IMG/VR virus record: IMGVR_UViG_2529293040_000015
DNA from: a virus
Taxonomy: Duplodnaviria > Heunggongvirae > Uroviricota > Caudoviricetes
Length of the DNA stretch: 17,201 bases
Strand: one strand, 5' to 3'
Part shown: one piece after another, positions 12,001 to 15,000 of the stretch
Numbering within the stretch: the stretch's first letter is position 1
Layout of the letters: the number at the start of each line of letters is the position of its first letter
Program-made: the position numbers

Positions 12001-15000
12001 GTCCGGCGTCATCCTGCGCATCCGGATATTGAACGGGCGCGGCGGCAGGTTACCCACCACCACCGATGCCAGATACTGTGAGGTGGTTTTGCCTTTAATG
12101 GTGATGTCTTTTTCCGTCACCCAGCCACCGTTACGTTGTATCTGAACCAGCAGGCGGACTTCCGACGGATTCCTGTCCCCCTTTGAGGTGGTTTCCACCA
12201 GTGCCTGCACACCGAAGGTAAAACGCAGTCGGTCAATGTTTGCCGACGTGATGGTCCGGGTGATCGGCGTGTCGTATTTCACTTCCGTACCCAGCACCGT
12301 CTCGGAGCCGGAGGATTCAAATCCCTCCGGCGGAGTCTGCTCCTGCTCACCAGCCCGGAACACCACCGTGACACCGGAGATATTGGTATTCCCCTCACTG
12401 TCCAGCACCGGCGTACTGTTCAGCAGCACGCTTTTTAATCCATCCACCGGACCGTCAATCGGCCCTTCGCTGATGGCATCAATCACACTCAGCAGTTGCG
12501 TGGACTTCAGGTTGTCCTTCGCTTCGCGCGGGGTATGCCCCTTACTGCTTCCTTTGCCCATTCGTCATGCTCCATAAACGACAAAACCGCCCGGAGGCGG
12601 TTTCACATGAAATATTTTGCATCAGCGGCCAATCACCACAACCTGACCACCGTCCCCTTCATCTGCCGTGCTGATCTCCTGAGAAACCACACGAGACCCC
12701 ACGCGCATTTCACCGTACAGAACAGGCAGAACATTGCCCTGGGCAACCATGTTATCCAGTGATGAGAAATAGGTGTTCTGCTTACCGTTATCCGTGCTGG
12801 TCGCTGTGGGCGTCCGGGCTTTCGGTGCCAGCATCTGGGCCACACCACCCAGGATCATACTGGCCCCTGCCGCATACATGCCCGATACAGCCGCGGCACC
12901 CAGCCAGCCCACAGGGTTCCACCATGCCACCGCAATCAGCGCCGCCCCCAGCACCACCTGAAACACACCGCCACTTTTAGCTCCCGCCAGATGCGGCACG
13001 ATGTGGATCACGGCACCATTTGCCAGCGGCTCATTAAGACGGGCAGATAATTCGGTTTCACCTGCATCACGCCCGGCAATGCGCACCTGATACCAGCCGT
13101 CATTCAGTTTCTGACGAAACGCCGGGAGCTGTGTGGACAACGCCCGGATGGCTTCAGCCCCCGTTTTTACACGAAGGTCGATGCGGCGGCCAAATCGTTG
13201 TAAATCCCCGTAAAGGCAGATGCGTGCCATGCCCGGTGACGCCAGAGGGAGTGTGTGCGTCGCTGCCATTTGTCGGTATACCTCTCTCGTTTGCTCAGTT
13301 GTTCAGGAATATGGTGCAACAGCTCACCGTCGCCGCAGTAAATGGCGGCATGATTCGGCACCGATGAACCAAAACAGCACAGCAGCACATCGCCCGGCTG
13401 CGCCGCTGACAACGGCACCTGATACAGCCCTGTGGCCTCCAGATTATCCAGATAGAGATTCTGGCCGTTACACCACCAGTCATCCTCACGATGAAAGTCC
13501 GGCATCTCAATCCCCGCCAGATGATAAGCATCCCGGAACAGCGTGTAACAGTCCGTCACCCCGTGCTCAAAGCGCCGCCCGGTAAGATGCGGCACACAGC
13601 GGAATTTATGAATCTCACCCCGGCAGACCAGCCACCAAGGCAAATCGCTCTGCACCTGCAGCCGCCTGTCAGCCTCACTCAGCCAGGGCAGACCACCGGG
13701 GTGGCTGTGGACCAGCGCCACAATCTCACCCTGCATCTCTGCCCGCAGCCAGTCCTCCGGCGACATCCGGAAATACGCCTCCGGCTCACCGGAGATATTC
13801 ACGCAGGGAAAATATCTTTCCCCTTCCGGCGTTCTCACCACGAAGCCGCACGACTCCGCTGGCGCACATCGCCGGGCGTGCGCCAGAATCTCTGATTCTG
13901 TCTGTGTCATGGGATTACTGCGAAAGTTTGTTAATGGAAAGGAAGCCGCCAAAGTTGCCGACGTTATTGCGAAACTTACAGCCGCTCAGGCATTTGCTGC
14001 ATTTATCCTTCGTGATATCGGACGTTGGCTGGTCATATTCATCCGCGACCGCCGGACCGTGATAACCGCACTCACCGCCGCGATAGGTCCAGGTGCAGGT
14101 GTTGGCCAGCATGATACGTCCCGGAAAAACAGCGCCGTCCGTTTCCGTCGGCGTGGACAGTACAAAGGAGGCACTGACCGCGCTCAGTTCGCTGCACTGC
14201 TCAATGCGCCAGCGGCTGATCACCTCCTGCTCCGGATCGGCGTCACTGTTTCCGTTGACGAAGTTCACCGCATCCAGAAAACGGGCGTAAACCTTACGCC
14301 GGACCACCGTTCCGCCGACCAGACTCTGCAGATCTTCCGCCATCCCGGTGACCATACCGTACAGGTTAGAAACCGTCAGCGTGGGGCGCGTACTGGTGCC
14401 TTTGCCATTCAGTTCAAAACCACTCCCCTGAATGGGATACGGCTGATACTGTCGCCCCTGCCAGGTGACCGGCTCACCTTTTTCGTCTGCTCATTACAGA
14501 AAAAATACGTTCTCCACCGACCTCTGTCAGATCGATTTCCCAGAGCACCACGCTGGCCGACTGCTCCGCACGGGTGCATTCATTCAGTGTTTCCTGCCGG
14601 ATATCCTGCATCAGTTCACCACCTGTTTAAACTCTGCGCTGAACTCAACACGCAACATACTGACCTGCGACGACCATTTTGCGCAGGTCACCTTTATCTG
14701 CCTGTAACCATAAGGCGGCGTCCACAGAAAGGCCTTCCAGCCTCCGTGCTCTGCCAGAAACGACTCCAGCGCCGTGGCCTCCTCACGGGAGACAGACAGC
14801 GTCACGCTGTACGTTTTCAGGTCAGCGTTCAGCCCGGCAGGCGCACGCTGGGAATAGCTATCACCAAAGCGCACCTCCCTGACGGAAGGAGCCGATGTCA
14901 CATCCATCCCGGGTTTCACTTTCCAGCGGAAGGTTTTCATCGTCCACCTCCGGAGAACAGACCACCATCGCGCATCTGCCCGGTCACAACATCCATTGCC

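Follow-up and report, generated by a model that had tools for sequence, protein, structure and literature searches.

Two single-base deletions in tail-tip gene L of a defective lambdoid prophage of Escherichia coli DEC2A, with local sequencing or consensus error as the leading explanation

Introduction

Does the frameshifted tail-tip gene L in a lambdoid prophage of the EPEC strain DEC2A record a mutation of the prophage, or an error in the sequence deposited for it? The window analyzed here, 17,201 bp in length, is the entire contig AIFA01000045.1 of the E. coli DEC2A assembly GCA_000249155.2. The original prediction placed a homopolymer-associated frameshift in L and, pointing to the same type of lesion in a second tail gene, offered two explanations: a decaying prophage or systematic indel errors in this assembly. 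We compared the locus with its relatives base by base, searched for the lesion in complete genomes, phage records, and metagenomes, and weighed the possible origins of the missing bases.

Identity of the locus and its closest comparisons

The element in the window is the torT-adjacent lambdoid prophage of DEC2A, which carries nleB2, nleC, and nleD as cargo. Its tail module, delineated from ORFs and Pfam matches, is encoded by the minus strand with the gene order H, M, L, K, I, J, as in annotated relatives. The gene for the tape measure protein H (14937-17201) is open over its C-terminal 754 codons and continues past the contig end. M (14611-14940; 109 aa, PF05939), K (13167-13910; 247 aa, JAB plus NlpC/P60 domains), and I (12622-13269) are intact, and L (13915-14611) and J (8847-12561; 3715 nt) are broken.

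L is an ordinary lambda-type tail-tip gene within this prophage. As in bacteriophage lambda, where gpL (PF05100) is encoded in the same H-M-L-K-I-J order, its start codon and the stop codon of M have one base in common: the ATG occupies 14611-14609 on the minus strand, and base 14611 belongs to both genes. An overlap with the M stop had been noted in the original prediction. In DNA sequence, L is 98-99% identical to genes with the annotation "phage minor tail protein L," which occur in thousands of genomes as well as in lambdoid phages. Unlike lambda gpL, the L gene in the window lacks two bases, at codons 36 and 43, and encodes no full-length product.

Window positions 313-14614 align in one piece with prophage PP4 of E2348/69 (EPEC O127:H6), with 98.7% identity and three indels. 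The two share the integration site, nleD, nleC, nleB2, a DUF1076 gene, and both frameshifts in J. In E2348/69 PP4, unlike in the window, L is intact and the tape-measure gene is frameshifted, whereas DEC2A differs from it in an IS66-family element in torR and in a PP2-type segment above 14026 that comprises H, M, and the 5' part of L. This PP2-type haplotype segment (14026-17201, minus strand) covers the 5' two-thirds of L, M, and H, and below 14026 the window is identical to PP4-type sister strains; the switch at ~14026 points to a recombinant prophage or, alternatively, to chimeric assembly of the contig. In the sister strains that share the identical 655-aa J fragment, L is intact and encodes 232 aa.

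Structure of the L lesion

The reading frame that starts at the L ATG, MQDIRQETLNECTRAEQSASVVLWEIDLTEVGGER, encodes 35 gpL residues (MQDIRQ...TEVGGER), after which it runs through IFSVMSRRKR to a TGA at 14476-14474. The resulting 5' stub ORF (14474-14611, minus strand) consists of 45 codons, 35 authentic and 10 out of frame, and corresponds to the 45-aa protein EHU30925.1 of DEC2A in GenBank. Between the deletions, a 21-nt stretch (14487-14506, minus strand) lies in a third reading frame (YFFCNEQ(TKK)). The remainder of the gene (13915-14484, minus strand), which is read in the frame that results from the two deletions together, encodes gpL residues ~44-232, beginning with (K)GEPVTWQGRQ... and reaching the normal TAA at 13917-13915; from the first ATG in this frame, a 146-aa ORF (13915-14355, minus strand) matches PF05100 positions 59-206. 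The predicted layout, 35 gpL-like residues followed by termination and resumption in another frame, was thus recovered, with a single uninterrupted L ORF of ~232 codons being absent from the deposited sequence and split across three frames. The repaired gene encodes 232 aa that span the whole Phage_tail_L profile (PF05100, positions 1-206 of 206; 334 bits, E = 2.6e-100), which bears out the assignment to gpL. Conserved C-terminal cysteines of gpL are reported to bind an Fe-S cluster; the C-terminal cysteines in ...NTCTWTYRGGECGY...KCSKCLSGC..., candidate ligands here, are the same as in intact relatives.

L is 697 nt long in the window versus 699 nt in intact genes. Base-by-base alignment with three intact L genes confirmed the anticipated shortfall of 2 nt and resolved it into two separate 1-nt deletions located 21 nt apart. 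The first deletion (14506-14507, minus strand) changes CGTTAT to CGTAT at codons 35/36, so that a TT doublet loses one T; the remaining T is at 14507, and the adjoining T6 run (14500-14505) is full length. The second (14485-14487, minus strand) changes CAGAAC to CAGAC at codon 43, so that an AA doublet loses one A; the remaining A is at 14486, and the adjoining A5 run (14479-14483) is full length. On the coding strand, then, the contexts are TT ahead of A-T6 and AA ahead of CG-A5. The runs seen earlier lie where they had been placed, namely, in plus-strand terms, T5 (14479-14483) and A6 (14500-14505). The description of the lesion as homopolymer associated holds loosely, in that both deletions adjoin runs, but the runs themselves have the same lengths as in intact L genes and the deletions sit in the 2-nt doublets. 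Slippage within the homopolymers, a lesion type that does exist in error-rich assemblies, was rejected for the L gene of the window on account of the full-length T6 and A5.

A further 1-nt gap, past the L stop codon, is common to E2348/69 PP4 and is natural variation. The chance of finding two indels at most 21 nt apart within 14.3 kb is low (p ~0.003); therefore, the two L lesions are not independent, whatever their cause.

Inherited frameshifts in J

The second frameshifted tail gene is J. Measured against intact gpJ, it is split over three frames by two 1-nt lesions, both genuine deletions on the minus strand: loss of a T that creates a G6 run (10613-10618) and A8>A7 (9922-9928). The first of these lesions is common to the finished E2348/69 genome and to four sister assemblies (L022, L024, L025, and L026); of these relatives, E2348/69 alone has the second. 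The J lesions are inherited, stepwise, and genuine. In the E2348/69 copy of the prophage, the tape-measure gene is frameshifted as well, so that the inactivating lesions in essential genes of this prophage, other than those in L, comprise the two J frameshifts and that of the E2348/69 tape measure.

Considering that J holds two inherited frameshifts, the prophage is truly defective independently of L, and its decay is real because both J frameshifts are also found in finished genomes. The original suggestion of a decaying prophage is accordingly true, but its evidence lies in the J lesions and not in L. Independently assembled relatives share the lesions in J, whereas their L is intact.

Accuracy of the contig

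Between the window and E2348/69, there are essentially zero mismatches over torR, torT, and the nle genes, and the remaining ones cluster in mosaic patches. No mismatches were found over ~6 kb, and 64 of the 65 runs of at least 5 nt agree. The proposal of systematic, assembly-wide indel errors was therefore rejected, only three indels separating the contig from E2348/69 over 14.3 kb. These indels are located at 3030, 14486, and 14507. The run at 3030 is T6 in the window versus T7 in 349 of 350 complete genomes and looks like an undercall too. All three contig indels are rare or private in comparison with relatives and lie in or adjoin homopolymer runs.

Distribution of the double deletion

Among complete E. 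coli genomes, none of ~7,551 L copies (4,036 of 5,426 genomes have L) carried the lesion, and every full-length L match in them was 2 nt longer than the query. A second search employed a 62-nt filter query whose flanks were too short to let a wild-type L seed a 28-mer match; in a local control, it found the window and the one other carrier described below and ignored intact loci, even with masking on. This query retrieved no carrier of either deletion from the complete genomes or from 50,697 phage records. Degenerate pattern scans of the GTDB species representatives and IMG/VR yielded zero double deletions and, where single deletions were scanned for, zero of these.

The exact 45-aa stub has one other occurrence in an index of 153 billion genes, on a JGI metagenome contig (L005; IMG 3300022775). 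This contig is 95.8% identical to the window, yet shares both deletions. At ~45 variable sites over ~950 nt, L005 equals the intact complete genome GN02270, and over the same ~950 nt the window equals the intact PP2 of E2348/69, so that, judged against their intact twins, the two carriers share only the deletion pair. Shared descent would accordingly need conversion confined to a tract of 23-44 nt. Such precision sits badly with an allele found just twice, and we disfavor shared descent of the two lesions. Contamination with laboratory lambda or reagents was rejected as the source of L005, whose best phage matches are wild lambdoids (98.5%). In its K gene, L005 has an additional indel, a G>GG change that is separated from a G5 run by two bases (G-CC-G5).

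Deletion 2 alone occurs on a third haplotype, in contig L027 (SRR024155), and the nearest complete-genome relatives of this contig (99.4%) are one base longer. Another contig with deletion 2 alone (L029) was set aside as chance noise, given its ~0.5x coverage and 14 scattered indels, and two contigs with a disrupted L and the same C-terminal remnant (L017 and L018) have unrelated lesions.

Other frameshifts in the same 30 nt

The 90% cluster of the stub holds further 45-aa proteins, with the ending ...GGERYFSVMSRTKR. At the DNA level, these combine T6>T5 with A5>A4 and also show GATC>GACC and CCTGG>CCGG. The assemblies that encode them have 23-40 gap columns per 4.3 kb, with all tail genes shattered, a pattern that is the signature of error-rich long-read assemblies. 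In a homology search, T6>T5 or A5>A4 lesions turned up in dozens of additional clusters of stubs. For this type, the recurrence of an identical indel pair in the L stretch is demonstrably a technical signature.

The two indels in the L gene of the window, the same two in L005, and the extra G in K of L005, five in all, fall into one context type, a short run of base X located 1-2 bases from a run of at least 5 X. In this respect they resemble the indel errors of flow and long-read sequencing, which are likewise 1-nt miscounts in a short run near a longer one of identical base and recur across unrelated haplotypes while being absent from finished genomes. Unlike typical errors of these kinds, the lesion in the window leaves the long runs correct and hits the doublets alone, with the remaining contig clean.

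Origin of the L lesion

Despite the lack of an assembly-wide problem, the explanation that we rank first for the L lesion is a local error in sequencing or consensus calling; we put the chance that the two missing bases reflect such an error in a 454-era draft at somewhat better than even. This reading is favored because the lesion is missing from finished genomes and sister strains and recurs as a pair on an unrelated haplotype, with deletion 2 alone on a third, because the extra G of L005 has a context of the same type, because all three contig indels are rare and lie in or adjoin runs, and because the L stretch demonstrably hosts recurrent artifacts of the T6>T5 plus A5>A4 type. The pair in DEC2A and L005 is then a second technical signature, with another error pattern.

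Under the error explanation, the bases would be present in the organism, and the doublets, which lie 1-2 bases away from a long same-base run, would have been undercalled. In flow sequencing (454 and Ion Torrent), each doublet would be read in a flow of the same nucleotide as the neighboring homopolymer flow, and loss of synchrony (phasing, CAFIE) could move signal between these same-nucleotide flows. One or a few badly dephased reads might then produce both errors at once with no other local error. For DEC2A, we infer both the flow chemistry and the discordant reads at the L site. Carry-forward and incomplete-extension (CAFIE) errors of this kind are known for 454 and Ion Torrent (PMC3711422), and 454 Titanium with Celera was used in a 2012 paper from the same center and group (PMC3491183), which is a circumstantial lead to the platform of DEC2A.

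Some observations run against an error. The contig is otherwise accurate, as detailed above. Flow-chemistry errors mostly strike the long run itself, and the runs in L are correct. Since J is already dead, nothing would hinder the decay of L, and a real lesion would be unsurprising. Elsewhere in the contig, a doublet accompanies a same-base run at twelve places, an identical TTATTTTTT at 2858-2866 among them, and none of these is affected; a deterministic error caused by simple context was rejected for this reason. The contig number of L005 hints at a large metagenome, probably sequenced with Illumina, in which case its lesions would be real.

The main alternative to an error is that the deletions are real, private mutations, L being a pseudogene in an already defective prophage. 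We regard this as a serious possibility that falls short of an even chance. Inactivation of J would have lifted purifying selection from the tail genes, after which L would have gained the two 1-nt deletions, whether simultaneously as a cluster (in an error-prone repair patch, for example) or sequentially. Such a history accords with the two inherited 1-nt deletions in J, one of which also adjoins a run, with the frameshifted tape-measure gene of the E2348/69 copy, with the accuracy of the rest of the contig, and with the identical contexts elsewhere in it that are unaffected. The presence of the same pair in L005, an independent metagenome assembly, also speaks for real deletions. It would, however, call for gene conversion over very short tracts from one lambdoid prophage to another, or for a mutational hotspot so far unrecognized; otherwise L005 is left unexplained. 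The pair is found on two haplotypes that are ~4.7% apart, each known in an intact form, so that transfer would be confined to a tract of 23-44 nt, and a recombining allele should be commoner than the two carriers in the index and zero complete genomes observed. We know of no mechanism for independent recurrence of the same rare pair of doublet deletions. No ectopic donor sequence was found in the complete genomes or in the 50,697 phage records, and ectopic gene conversion from a donor with the double deletion was rejected on that ground. Both carriers have near-zero substitutions relative to their intact twins near the lesion, which makes the ratio of indels to substitutions unusually high. 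A template switch at a quasi-palindrome or direct repeat was set aside as improbable, as judged by eye: the deletions do not appear to improve the local hairpin or to copy a nearby repeat.

A stronger version of the same idea, in which the double deletion is both real and recurrent, arising through a sequence-determined hotspot or through transfer of less than 45 nt between co-resident lambdoid prophages, appears highly improbable to us. Tail assembly would in that case be disabled in separate prophage lineages.

Least probable of all, to the point of being nearly negligible, is a functional L whose expression would require two consecutive -1 ribosomal frameshifts, the first through P-site slippage at U UUU within AUU UUU UCU and the second through slippage at G AAA AAG; the product would have 232 aa and differ from the wild type only at Y36I, N43T, and E44K. 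The deletions do adjoin slippery-looking runs, two -1 shifts would restore the exact wild-type length, and motifs of the A_AAG and U_UUY kinds are able to cause -1 slippage at a low level in E. coli, but there is no canonical in-frame X XXY YYZ, site 2 offering just G AAA AAG, which is non-canonical, L is a single ORF in thousands of homologues, and two unstimulated slips would have a very low combined efficiency. In contrast to programmed -1 frameshifting, such as that of lambda G/GT, L has neither a canonical heptamer nor a conserved two-frame architecture, the arrangement not being conserved in the sister strains.

Implications

The finding in L is ordinary under either reading, artifact or real, and its biological weight is small. 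If the lesion is an artifact, it is a routine draft-assembly error; a real lesion would add another mutation to a prophage already dead through the J frameshift. Of wider use is the behavior of the stretch itself. The sequence TT-A-T6 ... AA-CG-A5 of L breaks in varied, platform-typical ways across many public assemblies, and the resulting stubs of 45-67 aa have been deposited as proteins. Frameshifts in this stretch that come without read support should not be taken to show prophage decay, and claims of decay for the DEC2A prophage should use the J lesions, which are common to finished genomes.

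A haplotype junction within tail gene L

The window changes haplotype at ~14026. Below this position, the sequence is identical to that of sister strains carrying the PP4-type (torT-adjacent) prophage, whereas above it, the 5' two-thirds of L together with M and H track the PP2 type of E2348/69 (the finished EPEC O127:H6 genome), with 61 mismatches to the sisters. We looked for this PP2/PP4-type junction in other assemblies and found none with it; the junction may, therefore, have arisen by genuine recombination, or it may reflect a chimeric contig in which two prophages are joined via their shared L 3' end.

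Indels in L and K of other assemblies

In many chromosome-scale GenBank assemblies (loci L006-L015, position ~3100 in each), L contains T6>T5 and A5>A4 changes in the homopolymer runs adjacent to the two window deletions (14486 and 14507). In the same assemblies, the tail genes are shattered, and GATC>GACC and CCTGG>CCGG changes also occur. The two run contractions result in a 45-aa stub, P0003; its deposits, under several accessions, are labelled 'hypothetical protein' or 'phage tail protein', and the index lists it in 61 blocks. The metagenome contig L005, which shares the L double deletion with the window on another haplotype, has an indel in gene K too, namely, a +1 G insertion (~1579) located two bases ahead of a G5 run, a context of the same kind as that of the L lesions.

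Insertion elements and the torR end of the contig

The contig opens inside an IS66-family element (1-312), with the C-terminus of the IS66 transposase (PF03050 and PF13817) encoded at 7-282, and torR sequence resumes at 313, so that the gene lacks its first 206 nt. In DEC2A, torR is apparently interrupted, in contrast to E2348/69, where the gene is intact. A T-run in an IS256-transposase remnant (3030-3035) is T6 in the window and T7 in 349 of the 350 complete genomes in which this region is present. About 10 nt from the run, the window has a private A/G SNP.

Decay of tail gene J and retention of effector cargo

Gene J carries a dT deletion that creates a G6 run (10613-10618), common to E2348/69 and all sister assemblies, and an A8>A7 deletion (9922-9928) that, outside the window, is present in E2348/69 only. 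Both 1-nt deletions are genuine. In one sister assembly (L022), an IS66 element is additionally inserted in J. Taken together, the two deletions and this insertion show that the tail-tip gene has decayed stepwise. The effector cargo of the same prophage (2275-6414), which consists of nleD (2275-2973), nleC (3441-4460), nleB2 (4494-5474), and a DUF1076 gene (5836-6414), is essentially identical to its E2348/69 counterpart and remains intact, while the tail genes are broken.
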